Assembly: GCF_003334785.1 (NCBI RefSeq)
Contig: NZ_QOWV01000002.1
Direction: 5' to 3' (one strand)
DNA length: 64,000 nt
Source of the DNA: Escherichia coli
GTDB lineage: Bacteria > Pseudomonadota > Gammaproteobacteria > Enterobacterales > Enterobacteriaceae
Below are positions 34,873-44,583 of this stretch, in pieces. The translations under genes were made by a program, and so were the position numbers. Each line of letters opens with the position of its first letter. The stretch's first letter is position 1. The notes under the pieces were generated by a model, which worked only from the letters and a program-made list of their open reading frames with translations, was not told the origin of the DNA and made no database searches.

Positions 34873-36564
34873 ATGAAAACGCTGCTGATTATTGACGCTA
34901 ATCTCGGTCAGGCACGCGCCTATATGGCGAAGACCCTGCTGGGCGCGGCGGCGCGAAAAGCAAAACTGGAAATCATCGACAATCCGAACGACGCTGAAAT
35001 GGCGATTGTTCTCGGTGATTCCATCCCGAACGACAGCGCGCTGAACGGTAAAAATGTCTGGCTGGGCGATATTTCCCGGGCAGTTGCGCACCCTGAGCTG
35101 TTCCTGAGTGAAGCCAAAGGCCATGCGAAACCTTACACTGCGCCGGTCGCTGCGACAGCACCAGTTGCCGCCAGCGGTCCGAAACGCGTAGTTGCGGTGA
35201 CTGCTTGCCCGACTGGCGTAGCACACACCTTTATGGCGGCTGAAGCCATTGAAACCGAAGCGAAAAAACGTGGCTGGTGGGTGAAAGTTGAAACCCGTGG
35301 TTCTGTTGGCGCGGGTAATGCAATCACTCCCGAAGAAGTCGCAGCAGCGGATCTGGTGATTGTGGCGGCAGATATCGAAGTGGATCTGGCGAAATTTGCT
35401 GGTAAACCGATGTATCGTACCTCTACCGGTCTGGCGCTGAAGAAAACCGCGCAGGAACTGGATAAAGCGGTTGCTGAAGCAACGCCGTATGAACCGGCGG
35501 GCAAAGCTCAAACGGCGACCACTGAAAGTAAGAAAGAGAGTGCAGGCGCATACCGTCACTTGCTGACGGGCGTTTCTTACATGCTGCCGATGGTCGTTGC
35601 AGGTGGTCTGTGTATCGCGCTTTCTTTTGCTTTTGGTATCGAAGCGTTTAAAGAGCCGGGTACGTTGGCTGCGGCGCTGATGCAGATTGGTGGTGGTTCA
35701 GCCTTTGCGCTGATGGTGCCGGTACTGGCAGGTTATATTGCCTTTTCCATTGCCGATCGTCCGGGCCTCACTCCGGGTCTGATTGGCGGTATGCTGGCGG
35801 TCAGCACCGGTTCTGGCTTCATTGGTGGTATTATTGCGGGCTTCCTGGCTGGTTACATTGCGAAGTTAATCAGTACGCAATTGAAACTGCCACAGAGTAT
35901 GGAGGCGCTGAAACCGATCCTGATCATTCCGCTAATTTCCAGTCTGGTGGTCGGTCTGGCGATGATCTACCTGATCGGTAAACCAGTTGCTGGCATTCTC
36001 GAAGGGCTGACTCACTGGCTGCAGACCATGGGGACTGCGAATGCGGTTCTGCTGGGGGCGATCCTCGGTGGCATGATGTGTACTGACATGGGCGGTCCGG
36101 TAAACAAAGCAGCGTACGCATTCGGTGTGGGTCTGCTGAGTACTCAAACCTATGGCCCGATGGCGGCGATTATGGCGGCAGGTATGGTGCCACCGCTGGC
36201 AATGGGTCTGGCAACAATGGTGGCGCGTCGCAAATTCGACAAAGCGCAGCAGGAAGGTGGCAAAGCCGCTCTGGTATTGGGACTGTGCTTCATTTCGGAA
36301 GGTGCAATTCCGTTTGCTGCTCGTGATCCGATGCGTGTGCTGCCGTGCTGTATCGTGGGTGGGGCGCTGACTGGCGCAATCTCAATGGCGATTGGTGCGA
36401 AACTGATGGCACCGCACGGTGGTCTGTTTGTTCTGCTGATCCCTGGCGCTATTACGCCGGTATTGGGTTACCTGGTAGCAATTATTGCCGGTACGCTGGT
36501 GGCGGGTTTGGCCTATGCCTTCCTGAAACGTCCGGAAGTGGACGCAGTAGCGAAAGCAGCGTAA
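34873..36564 (+). CDS. fruA: Fructose PTS EIIB'BC component FruA
   Basis: 563 aa; IIB domain with CPTGVAHT motif plus polytopic IIC domain. Confidence 0.95.
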   Translation: MKTLLIIDANLGQARAYMAKTLLGAAARKAKLEIIDNPNDAEMAIVLGDSIPNDSALNGKNVWLGDISRAVAHPELFLSEAKGHAKPYTAPVAATAPVAASGPKRVVAVTACPTGVAHTFMAAEAIETEAKKRGWWVKVETRGSVGAGNAITPEEVAAADLVIVAADIEVDLAKFAGKPMYRTSTGLALKKTAQELDKAVAEATPYEPAGKAQTATTESKKESAGAYRHLLTGVSYMLPMVVAGGLCIALSFAFGIEAFKEPGTLAAALMQIGGGSAFALMVPVLAGYIAFSIADRPGLTPGLIGGMLAVSTGSGFIGGIIAGFLAGYIAKLISTQLKLPQSMEALKPILIIPLISSLVVGLAMIYLIGKPVAGILEGLTHWLQTMGTANAVLLGAILGGMMCTDMGGPVNKAAYAFGVGLLSTQTYGPMAAIMAAGMVPPLAMGLATMVARRKFDKAQQEGGKAALVLGLCFISEGAIPFAARDPMRVLPCCIVGGALTGAISMAIGAKLMAPHGGLFVLLIPGAITPVLGYLVAIIAGTLVAGLAYAFLKRPEVDAVAKAA

Positions 36565-36574
36565 TAAAAGGTGT

Positions 36575-36605
36575 GTTACAGGGCAGAAATTTCCTGTCCT
36601 GTAAC
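36575..36605 (+). terminator. Hairpin downstream of fruA (weak T-tract)
   Basis: gttacagggcag...ctgtcctgtaac, roughly 11-bp imperfect stem; followed by attt only. Confidence 0.35.
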
Positions 36606-36986
36606 ATTTGATGAGCGCAAAGAGAATGACCGGTTTGTGAATGTAATTTTATGAATTTAAATGGTTTTATCTTTCAGTAGAAACTTCAAACGTTCATCAA
36701 ACACTCAGGTTATTTCCTCAAGGGCAGATTATTTTCTGCCCTTTTTTATTGTTCTGTTCTGTGCATCCCGTCACAAATTCCTCGCTTTTGTAATTCAGGC
36801 ATTTAATCGCATTTTGTGAGCCTGCTCAAATCTGCCCATTTTGCCTCTCTGGCGGTAATTTACTTTACGTAAAACATGCATACTATGAGCACATGTTTAA
36901 ATATGAACACATGTTTAAACCGTCTTTGCAGTATCTATATTCTTGTGGATTGACAGGGTTGGTAATTTTTTACCAGAGGACGTGCT

Positions 36987-37928
36987 ATGCGCGAAAAGGA
37001 TTATGTCGTAATTATAGGTTCGGCGAATATTGATGTCGCCGGATATTCACATGAATCATTAAATTATGCGGATTCAAATCCAGGTAAAATAAAATTTACG
37101 CCTGGTGGAGTAGGGCGCAATATTGCACAAAACCTGGCGTTGCTGGGTAACAAAGCCTGGCTACTGAGCGCCGTAGGCAGTGATTTTTATGGTCAATCGC
37201 TGCTAACGCAAACCAATCAATCTGGCGTTTATGTCGATAAATGCCTGATTGTGCCGGGAGAAAATACGTCGAGTTATTTATCATTACTCGATAATACCGG
37301 TGAAATGCTGGTTGCTATAAATGACATGAATATTAGCAACGCTATTACAGCTGAATATCTCGCACAGCACGGTGAATTTATTCAGAGGGCAAAGGTCATT
37401 GTCGCGGACTGTAATATCAGTGAAGAGGCACTGGCATGGATTCTGGATAATGCCGCCAACGTACCCGTATTTGTCGATCCGGTTTCGGCATGGAAATGTG
37501 TCAAAGTGCGCGACCGTCTAAATCAGATCCACACTCTCAAGCCAAACCGCCTTGAAGCGGAAACCCTGAGTGGGATTGCGCTGTCAGGGCGTGAAGATGT
37601 GGCAAAAGTTGCTGCCTGGTTCCATCAACATGGCCTGAACCGACTGGTATTGAGCATGGGCGGCGACGGCGTTTATTACAGCGATATCAGCGGTGAAAGT
37701 GGCTGGTCTGCGCCGATCAAAACCAATGTTATTAATGTTACCGGAGCGGGCGATGCCATGATGGCGGGACTTGCTTCGTGTTGGGTAGACGGAATGCCGT
37801 TTGCCGAATCTGTTCGTTTCGCACAGGGATGTTCGTCAATGGCGCTCTCCTGTGAATACACCAATAACCCCGATTTATCGATTGCCAACGTTATATCGTT
37901 AGTGGAGAACGCAGAATGTCTGAATTAA
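36987..37928 (+). CDS. psuK: Pseudouridine kinase PsuK (YeiC), PfkB family
   Basis: 313 aa, MREKDYVVIIGSANIDVAG...GGVGRNIAQNLALLG... Confidence 0.93.
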   Translation: MREKDYVVIIGSANIDVAGYSHESLNYADSNPGKIKFTPGGVGRNIAQNLALLGNKAWLLSAVGSDFYGQSLLTQTNQSGVYVDKCLIVPGENTSSYLSLLDNTGEMLVAINDMNISNAITAEYLAQHGEFIQRAKVIVADCNISEEALAWILDNAANVPVFVDPVSAWKCVKVRDRLNQIHTLKPNRLEAETLSGIALSGREDVAKVAAWFHQHGLNRLVLSMGGDGVYYSDISGESGWSAPIKTNVINVTGAGDAMMAGLASCWVDGMPFAESVRFAQGCSSMALSCEYTNNPDLSIANVISLVENAECLN

Positions 37929-38854
37929 AAATTTCCCCTGAATTATTACAAATTTCCCCGGAAGTGCAGGACGCTTTAAAAAACAAAAAACCGGTTGTGG
38001 CGCTGGAATCGACCATTATTTCTCACGGGATGCCGTTCCCACAAAATGCCCAGACCGCAATTGAAGTTGAAGAAACTATTCGTAAACAGGGCGCTGTACC
38101 TGCCACGATCGCCATTATTGGCGGCGTGATGAAAGTGGGGTTAAGCAAAGAAGAAATTGAATTACTGGGTCGTGAAGGGCATAACGTGACCAAAGTTAGT
38201 CGTCGCGATTTACCTTTTGTTGTTGCCGCCGGAAAAAATGGCGCAACCACTGTGGCTTCAACGATGATTATTGCGGCGCTTGCCGGAATTAAAGTATTTG
38301 CCACCGGGGGAATTGGTGGTGTGCATCGCGGGGCGGAACATACCTTCGATATTTCTGCCGATTTGCAAGAACTGGCAAATACTAATGTCACCGTTGTTTG
38401 TGCCGGGGCGAAATCTATTCTCGATTTAGGATTAACCACTGAGTATTTAGAAACCTTCGGTGTGCCGTTAATTGGCTATCAGACTAAAGCGCTGCCTGCG
38501 TTTTTCTGCCGCACCAGCCCGTTTGACGTCAGCATTCGTCTCGACAGCGCCAGCGAAATTGCCCGTGCAATGGCGGTGAAATGGCAAAGCGGTCTGAACG
38601 GTGGCCTCGTGGTAGCGAACCCGATCCCGGAACAGTTTGCTATGCCGGAACACACTATCAATGCGGCGATCGATCAGGCGGTAGCTGAAGCTGAAGCTCA
38701 GGGAGTCATTGGTAAAGAAAGTACGCCATTCCTGCTGGCGCGCGTTGCTGAACTGACCGGCGGTGACAGCCTGAAATCCAACATCCAGCTGGTGTTCAAC
38801 AACGCCATTCTGGCGAGCGAAATTGCCAAAGAATATCAGCGTCTCGCGGGTTAA
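37916..38854 (+). CDS. psuG: Pseudouridine-5'-phosphate glycosidase PsuG (YeiN)
   Basis: 312 aa, MSELKISPELLQISPEVQDALKNKKPVVALESTIISHGMP...; 13-nt overlap with psuK. Confidence 0.93.
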   Translation: MSELKISPELLQISPEVQDALKNKKPVVALESTIISHGMPFPQNAQTAIEVEETIRKQGAVPATIAIIGGVMKVGLSKEEIELLGREGHNVTKVSRRDLPFVVAAGKNGATTVASTMIIAALAGIKVFATGGIGGVHRGAEHTFDISADLQELANTNVTVVCAGAKSILDLGLTTEYLETFGVPLIGYQTKALPAFFCRTSPFDVSIRLDSASEIARAMAVKWQSGLNGGLVVANPIPEQFAMPEHTINAAIDQAVAEAEAQGVIGKESTPFLLARVAELTGGDSLKSNIQLVFNNAILASEIAKEYQRLAG

Positions 38855-38947
38855 TTTCTGACGGGCAGAAAGCCGTCGCCCGTACTCATCAAGCATACCA
38901 AAACCTGGCGCTGACGCCGGGTTTACCGGCATGAAGGGAAAATCATT

Positions 38948-40198
38948 ATGGATATAATGAGAAGTGTTGTGGGGATGGTGGTGTTACTGGCAATAGCATT
39001 TCTGTTGTCAGTGAATAAAAAGAGCATCAGTTTGCGCACGGTTGGAGCCGCACTGCTGCTGCAAATCGCTATTGGTGGCATCATGCTCTACTTCCCACCG
39101 GGAAAATGGGCAGTAGAACAGGCGGCATTAGGCGTTCATAAAGTGATGTCTTACAGTGATGCCGGTAGCGCCTTCATTTTTGGTTCGCTGGTTGGGCCGA
39201 AAATGGATGTCCTGTTTGACGGTGCGGGTTTTATCTTCGCCTTTCGCGTACTTCCGGCGATTATTTTCGTTACTGCGCTCATCAGTCTGCTGTACTACAT
39301 TGGCGTGATGGGGCTGCTGATTCGCATCCTTGGCAGCATTTTCCAGAAAGCCCTCAACATCAGCAAAATCGAATCTTTTGTTGCGGTTACTACTATTTTC
39401 CTCGGGCAAAATGAGATCCCGGCGATCGTTAAACCGTTTATCGATCGCATGAATCGCAACGAGTTGTTTACCGCAATTTGTAGCGGGATGGCGTCCATTG
39501 CTGGTTCGATGATGATTGGTTATGCCGGAATGGGCGTACCAATTGACTACCTGTTAGCGGCATCGCTGATGGCGATCCCTGGCGGGATTTTGTTTGCACG
39601 TATTCTTAGCCCGGCAACCGAGCCTTCGCAGGTCACATTTGAAAATCTGTCGTTCAGCGAAACGCCGCCAAAAAGCTTTATCGAAGCGGCGGCGAGCGGT
39701 GCGATGACCGGGCTAAAAATCGCCGCTGGTGTGGCGACGGTGGTAATGGCGTTTGTCGCAATTATTGCGCTGATCAACGGCATTATCGGCGGAATTGGCG
39801 GCTGGTTTGGTTTCGCCAATGCCTCTCTGGAAAGTATTTTTGGCTATGTGCTGGCACCGCTGGCGTGGATCATGGGTGTGGACTGGAGTGATGCCAATCT
39901 TGCGGGTAGCCTGATTGGGCAGAAACTGGCGATTAACGAATTCGTCGCTTACCTGAGTTTCTCCCCATACCTGCAAACGGGCGGCACGCTGGAAGTGAAA
40001 ACCATTGCGATTATCTCCTTTGCGCTTTGTGGTTTTGCTAACTTTGGTTCTATCGGTGTTGTCGTTGGCGCATTTTCGGCTATTTCGCCAAAACGCGCGC
40101 CGGAAATCGCCCAGCTTGGTTTACGGGCGCTGGCAGCAGCAACGCTTTCCAACCTGATGAGTGCGACTATTGCCGGGTTCTTTATTGGTCTGGCGTAA
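38948..40198 (+). CDS. psuT: NupC-family nucleoside transporter PsuT (YeiM)
   Basis: 416 aa, close paralog of the nupX product at 42138-43388. Confidence 0.92.
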   Translation: MDIMRSVVGMVVLLAIAFLLSVNKKSISLRTVGAALLLQIAIGGIMLYFPPGKWAVEQAALGVHKVMSYSDAGSAFIFGSLVGPKMDVLFDGAGFIFAFRVLPAIIFVTALISLLYYIGVMGLLIRILGSIFQKALNISKIESFVAVTTIFLGQNEIPAIVKPFIDRMNRNELFTAICSGMASIAGSMMIGYAGMGVPIDYLLAASLMAIPGGILFARILSPATEPSQVTFENLSFSETPPKSFIEAAASGAMTGLKIAAGVATVVMAFVAIIALINGIIGGIGGWFGFANASLESIFGYVLAPLAWIMGVDWSDANLAGSLIGQKLAINEFVAYLSFSPYLQTGGTLEVKTIAIISFALCGFANFGSIGVVVGAFSAISPKRAPEIAQLGLRALAAATLSNLMSATIAGFFIGLA

Positions 40199-40268: not shown

Positions 40269-40928
40269 TTACTGCATCATCCCGGAGAATTTATTCTCCG
40301 GGTCCATCTCCAGCGCCAGTCCTGACAACTGCTTTCTGTTTTTAATGAGATATCCTTTCTTGCTTTTAATTAATAAACCGTCGTGAATGAACTGCGCGAG
40401 AACATATAAAAGATGTCGATAAGAAACGCCTAAATACTCTGCCGCTTGCGTATGCTTTTCGTGATAAAGATCACCTTCCTGCGAGAGTAATATAAATGCT
40501 GCCAGGCGATTCACTAACGGAAATGATTGATTCTGAGTTAAAGAAACAATATTACGATAATTTTTATGACTTAAGGTGACGCAGAGTTTTCGTAAAAATA
40601 GCGTGTCGTTTAATAACAGCGGACGGTAATGTTTCATAGGGAGCGCAAGGCACCAACACTCTTCAATAGCCTGCACCGCACGCGGTTCATGGTCTTTATC
40701 GATTAACTCAATCTCGCCAATAAAACAGGGGGCGGCAAAGAAATCGATCAGCGACACGCGACCATTAGCTAGCGTGGCGTAAAGCCTGGCGCGGCCTCGC
40801 GTCAGGTAAAACAGCCAGGACGGCTGTTGCCCTTCCTGCACAATGTAGTCACGCGCTAAAAAATGAAACAGCCGCGTATCGGCTGAAACATCCGTTAAAA
40901 AGCAATCCTTAAACGCGGATTCACTCAT
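40269..40928 (-). CDS. yeiL: Crp/Fnr-family transcriptional regulator YeiL
   Basis: 219 aa from the ATG at 40928 ([11 protein letters not shown]...); cNMP-binding-like domain plus C-terminal HTH; track ORF starts 13 codons upstream. Confidence 0.88.
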
Positions 40929-41096
40929 CAATTGCTGCTTAAGATCATTATTGTGGATTTCTTTCACGATGTTTATCCGCTATGAGATTTCTCATATTTA
41001 GCATACGTACGCTGTTGTTAAGATTCAATCATCGGCCCGGTCGAATTTTCTTTGCTGTAGAAAAAATAACGCAACTGGAAACAGAGGAAATAAACA

Positions 41097-42038
41097 ATGG
41101 AAAAGAGAAAAATTATTCTGGATTGTGATCCGGGTCATGATGATGCTATTGCTATAATGATGGCGGCGAAACATCCGGCAATAGATTTATTAGGCATCAC
41201 TATTGTAGCGGGTAATCAGACGCTTGATAAAACATTAATTAATGGCCTGAATGTTTGCCAGAAACTGGAGATTAATGTTCCGGTTTATGCGGGGATGCCG
41301 CAGCCCATTATGCGTCAACAAATCGTTGCCGATAATATTCACGGTGAAACCGGACTGGATGGCCCGGTATTCGAGCCGCTGACCCGCCAGGCAGAAAGCA
41401 CTCATGCGGTGAAATATATCATTGATACCCTGATGGCAAGCGATGGCGATATCACTCTGGTGCCGGTTGGTCCGCTTTCAAATATCGCGGTGGCAATGCG
41501 TATGCAACCCGCGATCCTGCCCAAAATCCGTGAAATTGTGCTAATGGGCGGCGCTTACGGTACAGGCAACTTCACGCCATCTGCCGAGTTCAACATCTTT
41601 GCCGACCCGGAAGCCGCACGCGTAGTGTTCACCTCCGGCGTTCCATTAGTGATGATGGGCCTCGATCTCACCAACCAGACCGTTTGCACCCCGGACGTGA
41701 TTGCTCGGATGGAAAGGGCAGGCGGCCCCGCCGGAGAGCTGTTCAGCGACATCATGAACTTCACTCTCAAAACGCAGTTCGAAAACTACGGCCTTGCTGG
41801 CGGCCCGGTGCACGACGCCACCTGCATCGGTTATCTGATTAACCCTGATGGCATTAAAACCCAGGAGATGTACGTCGAAGTGGACGTCAACAGTGGCCCT
41901 TGCTATGGGCGTACCGTCTGCGACGAGCTGGGCGTTCTTGGCAAGCCCGCCAATACCAAAGTCGGCATCACTATTGATACAGACTGGTTCTGGGGATTAG
42001 TCGAAGAGTGCGTGCGCGGCTACATCAAAACCCATTAA
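41097..42038 (+). CDS. rihB: Pyrimidine-specific ribonucleoside hydrolase RihB (YeiK)
   Basis: 313 aa with IU-NH family N-terminal motif [11 protein letters not shown]. Confidence 0.95.
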
Positions 42039-42137
42039 GTGTTGATAACAAGCCGGGCCGGTATCGCAAGATGCAGGCCTGGCTATTTCTGATGGGCAGA
42101 AAGCCGTCGCCCAATATGACATGAAGAGATAATCACT

Positions 42138-43388
42138 ATGGATGTCATGAGAAGTGTTCTGGGAATGGTGGTATTGCTGACGATTGCGTTTTTACTGTCA
42201 GTAAACAAGAAGAAGATCAGCCTGCGTACCGTTGGCGCGGCGTTAGTGTTACAGGTCGTGATTGGCGGCATTATGCTTTGGTTACCGCCAGGGCGTTGGG
42301 TCGCTGAAAAAGTCGCTTTTGGCGTGCATAAAGTGATGGCGTACAGCGACGCGGGTAGCGCATTTATCTTCGGTTCTCTGGTCGGACCGAAAATGGATAC
42401 CTTATTTGATGGTGCAGGATTTATCTTTGGTTTCAGGGTGTTACCGGCAATTATCTTCGTCACCGCGCTGGTGAGTATTCTCTACTACATCGGTGTGATG
42501 GGGATTTTAATTCGAATTCTCGGCGGTATCTTCCAGAAAGCATTAAATATCAGCAAGATCGAGTCATTCGTCGCGGTCACCACCATTTTCCTCGGGCAAA
42601 ACGAAATTCCGGCAATCGTCAAACCCTTTATCGATCGTCTGAATCGCAATGAATTATTTACAGCGATTTGTAGTGGCATGGCCTCGATTGCTGGTTCGAC
42701 AATGATTGGTTACGCCGCACTGGGCGTGCCTGTGGAATATCTGCTGGCGGCATCATTAATGGCGATCCCTGGCGGGATCTTGTTTGCCCGCCTGTTAAGC
42801 CCGGCAACGGAATCTTCGCAGGTTTCCTTTAATAACCTCTCTTTCACCGAAACACCGCCAAAAAGCATTATTGAAGCCGCTGCGACAGGGGCAATGACCG
42901 GGCTGAAAATCGCCGCAGGTGTGGCAACAGTGGTGATGGCATTTGTTGCAATAATTGCGTTGATTAACGGTATTATCGGCGGCGTTGGTGGCTGGTTTGG
43001 TTTTGAACATGCCTCGCTGGAGTCCATTTTAGGTTACCTGCTGGCTCCACTGGCGTGGGTGATGGGTGTGGACTGGAGTGATGCGAATCTTGCCGGGAGT
43101 TTGATTGGACAGAAACTGGCAATAAATGAATTTGTCGCTTATCTCAATTTCTCACCCTATCTGCAAACGGCTGGCACTCTCGATGCTAAAACTGTGGCGA
43201 TTATTTCCTTCGCGTTGTGCGGTTTCGCTAACTTTGGTTCTATCGGGGTGGTGGTGGGGGCGTTTTCTGCGGTTGCGCCACACCGTGCGCCGGAAATCGC
43301 CCAGCTTGGTTTACGGGCGCTGGCGGCGGCGACGCTTTCCAACTTGATGAGTGCGACCATTGCCGGGTTCTTTATTGGTTTAGCTTGA
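42138..43388 (+). CDS. nupX: NupC-family nucleoside permease NupX (YeiJ)
   Basis: 416 aa, paralog of PsuT. Confidence 0.92.
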   Translation: MDVMRSVLGMVVLLTIAFLLSVNKKKISLRTVGAALVLQVVIGGIMLWLPPGRWVAEKVAFGVHKVMAYSDAGSAFIFGSLVGPKMDTLFDGAGFIFGFRVLPAIIFVTALVSILYYIGVMGILIRILGGIFQKALNISKIESFVAVTTIFLGQNEIPAIVKPFIDRLNRNELFTAICSGMASIAGSTMIGYAALGVPVEYLLAASLMAIPGGILFARLLSPATESSQVSFNNLSFTETPPKSIIEAAATGAMTGLKIAAGVATVVMAFVAIIALINGIIGGVGGWFGFEHASLESILGYLLAPLAWVMGVDWSDANLAGSLIGQKLAINEFVAYLNFSPYLQTAGTLDAKTVAIISFALCGFANFGSIGVVVGAFSAVAPHRAPEIAQLGLRALAAATLSNLMSATIAGFFIGLA

Positions 43389-43494: not shown

Positions 43495-44583
43495 TTACAC
43501 CATTGGCACTAATGAAAGCGCGTTATCGGCAGACAGGGTAGGGTTGTTTAAGCTGCCGCTGGCGCGCGAAATTGCCGCGCAGGCTACCGCAAAACGGGCG
43601 CTGTCGCGGAAACTGTATCCTTCAAGAAAGCTATATACCAGGCCCGCCATAAAACCATCGTCAGCACCAAAACTGTCTACTGTCGTATGCGCTGGCGCGG
43701 TCAGCAAAAATTGTTCTCCATCCTTTTCGCTGCAATAAACTGACTCATCGGGCAAATAAACAAACAGTTGCTGAACACCTTGCTGATGCAATGCATTCAC
43801 TGCGGTATTACGGTCAGCATCGCTGGTGATCGCCTGTCCCCATAAAATTTCCAGCTCCGGTAAAGTGGGTTTCAGGGTGTGAATATGCACCAGCCAGTGT
43901 TTGATTTTGCCCGCTTTGAATTCTGAAACGGTATCGACAAACACCGGGATTTCATCAGCGAGGGTAAAGACCCATTCCAGCGCCTCGGCTGTCAGGTTGC
44001 AATCAGCCAGTACCACGCCCGCATGACGAAGTAAATCGCGCGACCCGTTCAGTAGTTGCGGTGTCAACTGTTCCAGCAGATGGGTATCGTTAATCGCCAG
44101 CACGGTTTGATCGTCTCGATTGGCAATTGCCAGATACGTCGATGTGCTTTGACCATGCAAACGAACGCAGCCGGAGACATTCACGCCGGCACGGCGCGTT
44201 TCTTCCAGGAGCATTTCGCCATAAAAGTCATCGCCAATCACTGAAAGCAAATGGACGTCACGGCCTAACAGCGCCAGATTGTGGGCGATGTTGCGTCCCA
44301 CGCCGCCCGCTGAGCAATGAATTGTACCGGGATGAGAAGCCGATTGCGGGTAACGGATATCCGCCATCCCGCGAATATCCATATTGATTGTCCCCACCAC
44401 TACGCAGTATTCCTGCTCGGTGAGAATGTAACCTTTGCCTTTAATCCGGCCTTTGCGCATTAAATCCATAATATGCGCCGCAACGCGCGAACGGCTGATT
44501 TGCAGCATGTCCGCAATTTCGTTCTGCTGAATCAGCGGGTTACGCCGTAAAATTGCAAGGATCTCCTTTTCCCGGTTATTCAT
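43495..44583 (-). CDS. yeiI: HTH-domain-fused PfkB-family kinase YeiI (substrate unknown)
   Basis: 362 aa; N-terminal winged-helix-like segment (MNNREKEILAILRRNPLIQQNEIADMLQISRSRVAAHIMDL), then a PfkB kinase domain with GGVGRNIAHNLALLG, paralogous to PsuK. Confidence 0.9.
   Translation of the reverse strand: MNNREKEILAILRRNPLIQQNEIADMLQISRSRVAAHIMDLMRKGRIKGKGYILTEQEYCVVVGTINMDIRGMADIRYPQSASHPGTIHCSAGGVGRNIAHNLALLGRDVHLLSVIGDDFYGEMLLEETRRAGVNVSGCVRLHGQSTSTYLAIANRDDQTVLAINDTHLLEQLTPQLLNGSRDLLRHAGVVLADCNLTAEALEWVFTLADEIPVFVDTVSEFKAGKIKHWLVHIHTLKPTLPELEILWGQAITSDADRNTAVNALHQQGVQQLFVYLPDESVYCSEKDGEQFLLTAPAHTTVDSFGADDGFMAGLVYSFLEGYSFRDSARFAVACAAISRASGSLNNPTLSADNALSLVPMV

Follow-up and report, generated by a model that had tools for sequence, protein, structure and literature searches.

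In a 64,000-nucleotide stretch of the Escherichia coli contig NZ_QOWV01000002.1 (hereafter, the window), the region between fruA and psuK, the first gene of the psuKGT operon for pseudouridine catabolism, contains two adjacent palindromes on the psuK promoter. We are nearly certain that these two units are protein operators. The protein that binds them is probably YeiI, a product of the same gene neighborhood, in which a winged helix-turn-helix (wHTH) domain precedes a sugar kinase-like PfkB domain. Taken as a whole, we favor with moderate confidence a model in which the paired operators are bound by YeiI and psuKGT is repressed until pseudouridine binds. The window carries fruBKA-psuKGT-yeiL-rihB-nupX-yeiI, and its sequence is identical to that of E. 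coli K-12 MG1655. A window position p can be converted to NC_000913.3 by 2259293 + (36990 - p).

The operators lie within a tandem repeat. Tandem Repeats Finder reported one array only (36884-36919; period 18, 2.0 copies, 94% matches), and a repeat search showed that its two 18-bp units, TATGAGCACATGTTTAAA and TATGAACACATGTTTAAA, are identical at 17 of 18 positions. When up to three mismatches were allowed, the 18-mer was found at these two places only, where 0.14 occurrences were expected, and there is no further copy of the repeat in the 64-kb window. A preliminary description of this DNA had reported three ACATG-centered elements phased at 17 bp (ACATG at 36874, 36891 and 36908), the last two of them being a near-perfect tandem repeat. 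The repetition is real, its location 68-116 nt from the psuK ATG agrees with that description, and so does the length of the intergenic region (422 bp). However, the third ACATG is at 36909, so that only the first spacing is 17 bp and the second is 18 bp, and the period of the near-perfect repeat is 18 bp. The cluster of three ACATG within 40 nt is a single instance in the window, and at least three ACATG were obtained in 0.6% of shuffles of the 422-bp region. The first element, cgtaaaACATGcatact (36868-36884, + strand), has only the ACATG core in common with the other two; its flanks match at 3-4 of 12 positions, which is chance level, and its score against the position weight matrix (PWM) described below is -3.9 or lower. 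Because the spacings are unequal and the first unit shares ACATG only and scores below zero, a three-fold direct repeat with a 17-bp period is not a correct description. There are two 18-bp units, and the first element is a part of the psuK promoter spacer, which contains the conserved sequence AAAACATGC (36871-36879), and is not a motif site.

Within each 18-bp unit there is a 16-bp palindrome of CAAACA-NN-TGTTTG type, and the centers of the two palindromes are 18 bp apart. Operator 1 (ATGAGCA-CA-TGTTTAA; 36885-36900, center 36892.5) lies within the unit 36884-36901, and operator 2 (ATGAACA-CA-TGTTTAA; 36903-36918, center 36910.5) lies within the unit 36902-36919; neither was assigned to a strand. 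In other words, each site is a dyad-symmetric palindrome, and the array of direct-repeat half-sites that had been suggested was replaced by this arrangement. We aligned the psuK upstream regions of 12 genomes from Escherichia, Citrobacter, Buttiauxella and Raoultella. In this alignment, two cores, GArCAyrTGyT, are placed exactly 18 bp apart; the one at operator 1 reads GArCAyrTGTT. The center dinucleotide changes between CA and TG among the genera while AACA and TGTT are fixed, as expected of the site of a symmetric dimer.

The motif was trained by palindrome-constrained expectation-maximization with eight psu upstream regions, all of which were from outside Enterobacteriaceae. The training converged on GCAAACATATGTTTGC with a log-likelihood of 56.2, as compared with 21.0 ± 1.4 in shuffled sets, although the kinship of Yersinia and Serratia inflates this difference somewhat. 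When the resulting PWM was run over the window, the site at 36903-36918 ranked first among 63,985 positions (16.6 bits) and that at 36885-36900 ranked fifth (11.4 bits). As a pair with 18-bp spacing, the operators score 28.0, and the next best pair in the window scores 15.5. A perfect GAACACATGTT at 21268 and the remaining matches above 10 bits are all inside coding regions. Furthermore, the psuK upstream pair was the best match of the PWM in 12 of 12 other Enterobacteriaceae loci.

Conservation of the sites was also clear within the species. The segment from the -35 element through site 2 is invariant within Escherichia, and the next 15 bp vary or are deleted; the operator region was found in 4214 of 4218 E. 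coli genomes with K-12-type psuK. In another allele, which is present in about 1,200 E. coli genomes, E. albertii and other genera, the core of the second unit is the same but the flanks differ (TCTGAACACATGCTCTAA). Because these other alleles keep the core and change the flanks, the near-perfect form of the direct repeat is particular to the K-12-type allele; judging from the same comparison, the two sites themselves are ancient. Absence of the repeats from relatives had been named beforehand as the observation that would speak against an operator, and the sites are conserved. These results also bear on the idea that the repeat is a recent, functionless 18-bp tandem duplication. The identity of the K-12-type units at 17 of 18 positions is above functional need and would be explained by such an event, but the two sites are located at the same positions in alleles and genera with differing flanks, and the segment is invariant within Escherichia amid varying neighbors. 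We therefore give a neutral duplication almost no weight.

The alignment of the 12 upstream regions shows five conserved blocks amid variable DNA: a CRP-like box, a -35 element, a spacer block, a -10 element and the two cores. The -35 hexamer TTTACT (36859-36864, + strand) is within the conserved block ATTTACTTT, and TTTAC-TT is invariant across genera; Yersinia, Serratia, Xenorhabdus, Photorhabdus, Affinibrenneria and Salmonella have a TTTACT -35 as well. The -10 hexamer TACTAT (36881-36886, + strand) is 16 bp from the -35 hexamer, and TAnnAT is invariant in the alignment. In Listeria and Ilyobacter, a TATAAT-type -10 likewise abuts the first operator. The spacer block AAAACAyGC (36871-36879) does not vary across Enterobacteriaceae although it is no motif site; an additional half-site and a contact of RNA polymerase are possible roles. 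From the assignment of the -35 and -10 hexamers, transcription is predicted to start at about 36893; a start at 36892-36894 would correspond to about 2259389-2259391 of NC_000913.3, minus strand. Operator 1 then spans approximately -8 to +8 and operator 2 approximately +11 to +26. Thus, with this promoter placement, the two palindromes would span about -8 to +26, which would be a repressor position. They overlap the -10 hexamer and the predicted start and are not upstream of the promoter. The suggestion of a multi-site operator for psuKGT is supported by two deeply conserved units on the core promoter, but the number of sites is two and not three.

A mutation reported by others could be mapped onto this promoter. 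Between psuK and fruA, an A-to-C change at position 2257444 of NC_000913.2 is recurrent in mouse-colonizing E. coli (PMC7518454, PMC9509342, PMC10340439); it was named a psuK promoter single-nucleotide polymorphism (SNP) and alters growth (PMC9509342). The offset between NC_000913.2 and NC_000913.3 is 1978 bp, which we checked on four srlR mutations in the same table. The recurrent gut SNP corresponds to window position 36861 (NC_000913.3 2259422; T to G on the window strand, A to C on the genome strand). It changes TTTACT to TTGACT, a textbook -35 up-mutation, whereas the papers describe only a promoter-region SNP. The creation of TTGACT by an adaptive SNP is independent support for the psuK promoter assigned here. 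An A-to-C "psuK promoter" change, possibly the same as that at 36861, was also reported in three long-term stationary-phase populations (PMC7858067).

These promoter data also bear on the direction of regulation. If YeiI, or its operon-encoded counterpart with an apparently intact kinase domain (HTH-PsuK, see below), were an activator of a promoter further downstream (-35 TTTAAA, 36914-36919; -10 TATATT, 36936-36941), the two sites would be located at about -37 and -55. This downstream promoter-like site has 9 of 12 matches in a consensus scan, and an activator would be consistent with evolution experiments having yielded no loss-of-function alleles of yeiI. However, the TATATT region is conserved only in the K-12-type allele, whereas TTTACT and TAnnAT are kept as far as Yersinia and Salmonella. 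Moreover, the adaptive SNP makes a consensus -35 at the upstream promoter, and a near-perfect -10 abuts operator 1 in Listeria and Ilyobacter. We consider activation from the downstream promoter to be improbable.

Upstream of the -35 hexamer, there is a CRP-like box, TTTTGTGAgcctgcTCAAATCT (36812-36833, no strand assigned; TGTGA at 36815-36819, TCAAA at 36826-36830, center 36822.5). TTGTGA-N6-TCAnATCT (36814-36833) is invariant in the 12 Enterobacteriaceae sequences. The center of TGTGA-gcctgc-TCAAA is about -70.5 from the predicted start, which agrees with the box positions of class I CRP promoters (near -61.5, -71.5 or similar), and this distance depends on that start site. An operator with a similar CRP-like box about 70 bp upstream of it is also present in Yersinia, Serratia, Xenorhabdus, Enterobacter, Affinibrenneria and Salmonella. 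It should be mentioned that the CRP table of PMC12871828 lists no site at psuK and that the main texts of PMC12871828 and PMC3105977 do not give psuK as a CRP target. PsuG and PsuK group with many catabolite-controlled proteins, although this is a proteome correlation only (PMC11039860).

We now describe the candidate regulator. The yeiI gene (43495-44583, - strand) encodes a protein in which a winged HTH domain (residues 1-48, nt 44440-44583; HTH_24, 2.3e-10) is followed by a PfkB domain (2.5e-67), as assigned with Pfam and NCBIfam. The PfkB domain is about 40% identical to PsuK, and YeiI is the only wHTH-PfkB protein in the window. RefSeq labels YeiI as a "putative sugar kinase". The protein is uncharacterized (PMC9061257, PMC12506659, PMC6055005) and is on a list of predicted uncharacterized E. 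coli transcription factors (PMC6055005).

Synteny of yeiI and psuKGT holds at all Enterobacterales loci. In E. albertii, Citrobacter, Buttiauxella, Raoultella and Enterobacter, psuK-psuG-psuT is followed directly by a convergent, stand-alone yeiI. The psuKGT and yeiI module, again with a stand-alone yeiI convergent to psuKGT, also occurs in other contexts, namely in Affinibrenneria and in a Salmonella island beside a transposase and RelB/ParE, and in both of them the operator pair is present upstream of psuK. In Yersinia, Serratia, Xenorhabdus, Photorhabdus, Pasteurella, Shewanella, Aliivibrio and a Burkholderiaceae metagenome-assembled genome, the gene for an HTH-PfkB protein is the first gene of the psuG operon, and the same is true of Rhizobium, Ilyobacter and Listeria. 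At each of these operon-encoded HTH-psuK loci, the promoter or start carries a single motif site or two sites spaced by 16-19 bp. In the eight groups named first, the sites upstream of HTH-psuK and psuG, with or without a transporter gene, are mostly paired with a spacing of 18-19 bp and are beside a TTTACT -35 or the start codon.

Co-occurrence of the motif and the gene was tested on PLSDB replicons carrying psuG, with loci and not whole genomes as the unit. Replicons with a wHTH-PfkB gene had sites of 17.9 bits in Ilyobacter (Fusobacteriota), 18.0 and 10.0 bits in Rhizobium, and 19.3 and 10.5 bits, 19 bp apart, in Listeria; in all three, the sites abut a -10-like box. In contrast, no motif site was found at three psuG replicons without a nearby wHTH-PfkB gene: those of Bartonella (PfkB without HTH), Vibrio rotiferianus (psuG alone) and Paraburkholderia. 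Altogether, the motif and a nearby wHTH-PfkB gene occur together in about 25 psuG loci from four phyla. The wHTH-PfkB protein has the only DNA-binding domain common to the motif-bearing loci, and the recognition helix ISRSxVAxHI is conserved across YeiI and HTH-PsuK. YeiI is named as the likely binder mainly because of this co-occurrence, that is, by comparison of loci. Two nearby genes, yeiL and yeiI, had been mentioned as speculative candidates in the preliminary description. Of these, YeiI is strongly favored by gene neighborhood and motif co-occurrence, and YeiL is not, as described below.

The same loci can be used to weigh a factor encoded elsewhere, for which the association with wHTH-PfkB genes would be only a by-product of shared operon ancestry. 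Such a factor would fit with the lack of an operator at yeiI itself and with the lack of yeiI knock-outs among adaptive mutants, and the half-site GCAAAC resembles PurR/LacI-type half-sites. However, the motif tracks the wHTH-PfkB gene over four phyla and in unrelated contexts, no other DNA-binding domain is shared, and the motif is missing at the three psuG loci without the gene. In addition, LacI-type spacing, with a central CG and without a 4-bp insert, is not compatible with the sites. An unlinked factor is therefore unlikely.

Two further features of the HTH-psuK loci should be described. In Yersinia, Serratia, Xenorhabdus and Photorhabdus, HTH-psuK is preceded, at a distance of 240-280 bp, by a third palindrome, which is often perfect (e.g. 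AACCAAACActTGTTTGGTT; loci L014, 6749-6768; L015, around 6743; L016, around 6714; L031, around 4723). In Yersinia, Serratia and Xenorhabdus, it is about 70 bp downstream of a CRP-like box. This palindrome could belong to a second promoter or be a looping partner. Separately, the called start of HTH-psuK in Yersinia and Serratia (MFKNKQVS...; L014 and L015, 7001-7030) falls inside operator 1; translation probably begins 9 codons further downstream, at MTSREKQIL, in agreement with YeiI.

Binding of the sites by YeiL, a Crp/Fnr family protein, was considered because yeiL adjoins psuT in E. coli. The 14-bp form of the sites, TGAACAnnTGTTyA, resembles TTAACAnnTGTTAA, the box of PrfA, which is also a Crp/Fnr protein, and is nearly the same string as tTAACAnnTGTTaA of the Crp-Fnr type palindromes, and a 5-N4-5 geometry is typical of Fnr-type boxes. 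However, yeiL-rihB-nupX is missing at the loci of E. albertii, Citrobacter, Buttiauxella, Raoultella, Enterobacter, the Salmonella island and Affinibrenneria, all of which keep both sites, and it is also missing from all HTH-psuK operon loci. In other words, YeiL does not co-occur with the sites. Furthermore, sites of this family are usually single and, for activation, located at -41.5, and the yeiL-rihB intergenic region has no similar site, though YeiL reportedly autoregulates. Thus, YeiL is a very improbable binder.

Several other known operators were compared. The operator of RutR, the repressor of pyrimidine catabolism in E. coli, is TTGACCAnnTGGTCAA, also a 16-bp palindrome with a free 2-bp center, and uracil-yielding catabolism is a common theme; unlike in the psuK sites, its half-site is ACCA rather than AACA, and RutR is a TetR family protein that is not known to be linked to psu genes. 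A DeoR/GlpR-type element, TGTT-N8-AACA, between the two sites was dropped, since the outer half-sites are conserved too; the between-site sequence matches the DeoR operator at 11 of 16 positions only. NsrR was suggested by ATGCAT in the spacer, which is not conserved in Citrobacter. The geometry does not fit ArcA (11-bp phased TGTTA) or PurR, and the central CG of the latter is lacking. A LexA box (CTGT-N8-ACAG) was also considered, because in several clinical E. coli isolates treated with ciprofloxacin, some of the strongest protein decreases caused by recA mutation are those of PsuG and PsuK (PMC11039860). The sequence between the sites is TGT-N10-ACA, without CTGT, and psuK has no SOS box; the proteins falling along with PsuG and PsuK are mostly catabolite-controlled.

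If transcription starts near 36893, most of both units would be in the transcript, and the repeat might then act in RNA, as a 5'-untranslated region element for a protein or small RNA, or as a structure. There is indeed a conserved hairpin further downstream, TGGTAA-TTTT-TTACCA (36960-36975, + strand), directly 5' of the psuK Shine-Dalgarno sequence AGAGGA (36975-36980). In relatives, this hairpin shows compensatory changes from GGTAA/TTACC to GGCAA/TTGCC and GGCAT/ATGCC as well as G.U-type intermediates, and these changes favor an RNA structure there. The pairs were judged by eye; RNAalifold gave no structure owing to a one-base indel in the loop. The repeat itself is different. A dyad with a 2-nt center cannot form a hairpin, the dyad center flips between CA and TG, and extra copies are located 240-280 bp upstream in Yersinia, Serratia, Xenorhabdus and Photorhabdus. 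Moreover, Rfam gave no credible match. We regard an RNA element as having even less chance than binding by YeiL.

The kinase-like domain of YeiI may be the sensor of the system. We compared 43 sequences of the YeiI clade with PsuK, for which the residue numbering and roles were taken from PMC9061257. All of them keep the pseudouridine-contact residues of PsuK, N14, D16, S30, N112, N143 and K170, and also K185 and the catalytic D256. In contrast, the NxxGAGD motif is altered: G255D and N250D were found in 43 of 43 sequences and T252F in 41 of 43. In 42 operon-encoded HTH-PsuK proteins, the canonical NxxGAGD motif is kept. This pattern suggests that YeiI still binds pseudouridine but is impaired as a kinase. 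In PsuK, pseudouridine triggers a domain closure that involves the neighboring subunit (PMC9061257), and a closure of this type is a plausible route from ligand binding to repositioning of the HTH domains. YeiI would then be a dedicated sensor, derived from a bifunctional ancestor by duplication and division of labor.

On the basis of these comparisons, we propose the following mechanism. The tandem repeat would be a pair of adjacent palindromic operators that cover the -10 hexamer, the start and the first 26 or so transcribed bases of a weak psuK promoter that is probably assisted by CRP. Two YeiI dimers would bind side by side at -8 to +26 and block the initiation of transcription of psuKGT by RNA polymerase; the conserved spacing of 18-19 bp suggests a contact between the dimers. 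Pseudouridine or its 5'-phosphate would bind to the kinase-like domain, the HTH domains would shift, and the DNA would be released. The data show the sites, their symmetry and conservation, and their co-occurrence with the wHTH-PfkB gene, whereas the start site, YeiI as the binder, its action as a repressor and not an activator, and the effector are inferred; relief of repression by pseudouridine is, in our view, somewhat more likely than not. In most other bacteria, the regulator and the kinase would be one protein, HTH-PsuK, which is encoded at the head of the operon and would control its own expression. In Enterobacteriaceae and Pectobacteriaceae, these functions would be split into PsuK (enzyme, no HTH) and YeiI (HTH, degenerate GAGD motif). 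We lean, though only slightly, toward the wider proposal that wHTH-PfkB proteins are cross-phylum pseudouridine-sensing factors acting on CAAACA-NN-TGTTTG pairs, and that an ancestral kinase-repressor, HTH-PsuK, was duplicated and split in Enterobacteriaceae so that PsuK became a pure enzyme and YeiI a pseudokinase repressor, for which the name PsuR might be used.

Several observations weigh against regulation by YeiI as proposed here. There are just three negative-control loci in the co-occurrence test, and Deinococcus has a wHTH-PfkB gene but with a different palindrome and a different recognition helix. In the window, yeiI is 3 bp downstream of nfo and has no promoter or operator of its own, and no sites were seen upstream of nfo-yeiI or nupX. 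The motif is also missing upstream of yeiI in Affinibrenneria and Salmonella; thus, YeiI is not autoregulated there. Loss of kinase activity through G255D is a prediction from the residue change. The searched literature gave no DNA binding, start-site mapping or yeiI-mutant expression data. Finally, the studies of evolution in the gut and in stationary phase report only the -35 SNP for psu and no loss of yeiI, whereas knock-outs of repressors (frlR, srlR, dgoR and glpR) are often selected in evolution experiments (PMC7518454, PMC9509342, PMC7858067). The lack of yeiI loss fits with a weak promoter being limiting, whereas a different outcome would be expected of a tight, simple repressor.

The proposed system resembles several known ones. 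In NagC and Mlc of the ROK family, as is proposed here for YeiI, a sugar-kinase fold that carries a winged HTH at its N terminus is the ligand sensor, paralogous true kinases are present in the same genome, and palindromic operators overlap catabolic promoters that use CRP. Unlike in NagC and Mlc, the sensor fold is PfkB (ribokinase-like) and not ROK, and the wHTH-PfkB family, of which no member is characterized, comprises apparently intact kinases (HTH-PsuK) in addition to the degenerate branch of YeiI. In the trigger enzymes BirA and NadR, an HTH and an enzyme of the regulated pathway are in one polypeptide and DNA binding is controlled by substrate or product, which is comparable to HTH-PsuK of Yersinia and Listeria. 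However, the enzyme fold and pathway are different, the functions are split between PsuK and YeiI in E. coli, and the product of BirA is a co-repressor whereas the ligand here would be expected to be an inducer. With respect to the promoter, class I CRP promoters such as malT (CRP site near -70.5) similarly have TGTGA-N6-TCAnA about 70 bp upstream of the start and a poor -35, although the box of psuK is a putative one, known from sequence. Like the (GGTATA)x3 operator of NanR and other direct-repeat operators, the psuK operator consists of several adjacent units at a catabolic promoter; it differs from that of NanR in having two units instead of three, an internal palindrome in each unit, and a period of 18 bp.

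In the full-text literature that was searched, which did not include RegulonDB or RegPrecise, we found no account of these operators, of a psuK regulator or of the function of YeiI. The logic of the system is familiar from NagC/Mlc and BirA/NadR; what would be new is a PfkB-based family and its split into enzyme and pseudoenzyme. If the proposal is true, the orphan gene yeiI gains a function, and a first regulatory model is obtained for the bacterial catabolism of pseudouridine, an abundant modified nucleoside. A mutation that repeatedly sweeps in mouse-gut and stationary-phase E. coli would be explained as a -35 up-mutation of a deliberately weak promoter. The proposal would also provide a clean case of the conversion of a bifunctional enzyme-regulator into an enzyme and a pseudoenzyme sensor. 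Furthermore, the pair of YeiI and its operator could be used as a pseudouridine biosensor in strain engineering toward mRNA-vaccine supply.

The genes around the operators are arranged as follows. The fruA gene ends at 36564. The regulated operon (36987-40198) consists of psuK (36987-37928), psuG (37916-38854) and psuT (38948-40198), all on the + strand and assigned from open reading frames, RefSeq annotation and NCBIfam. At the 3' side of psuT, yeiL (- strand) is followed by rihB and nupX (+ strand) and then by yeiI-nfo-yeiH (- strand). The yeiL-rihB-nupX block (40269-43388), located between psuT and yeiI, is an insertion of the E. coli clade and is missing in E. albertii, Citrobacter, Buttiauxella and Enterobacter. 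NupX and PsuT are about 87% identical; therefore, nupX is regarded as a recent duplicate of psuT. Downstream of fruA, there are two hairpins, one at 36574-36606 with 16-bp arms directly after the stop codon and one at 36720-36743, 150 bp beyond the first, which is terminator-like with a T-run. They have complementary arms in common (AGGGCAGAAA and TTTCTGCCCT), and in some RefSeq genomes a small hypothetical protein is annotated between them.

Two deeply diverged E. coli alleles exist at 36565-36990 and at 43495-44583. By megablast, K-12-type psuK with its upstream region was found in about 4,200 of 5,426 genomes, and yeiI falls into nucleotide identity classes of 95-100% (3,361 genomes) and about 81% (2,060 genomes). 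The second psuK-upstream allele resembles that of E. albertii, which suggests an old introgression. On large conjugative E. coli plasmids (e.g. pCP53-mcr), psuKGT and the operator pair were captured beside ISVsa5, without yeiI. In single strains, psuK is interrupted by IS1, or IS1 separates the -35 of psuK from the -10 and the 5' end of the gene is lost.

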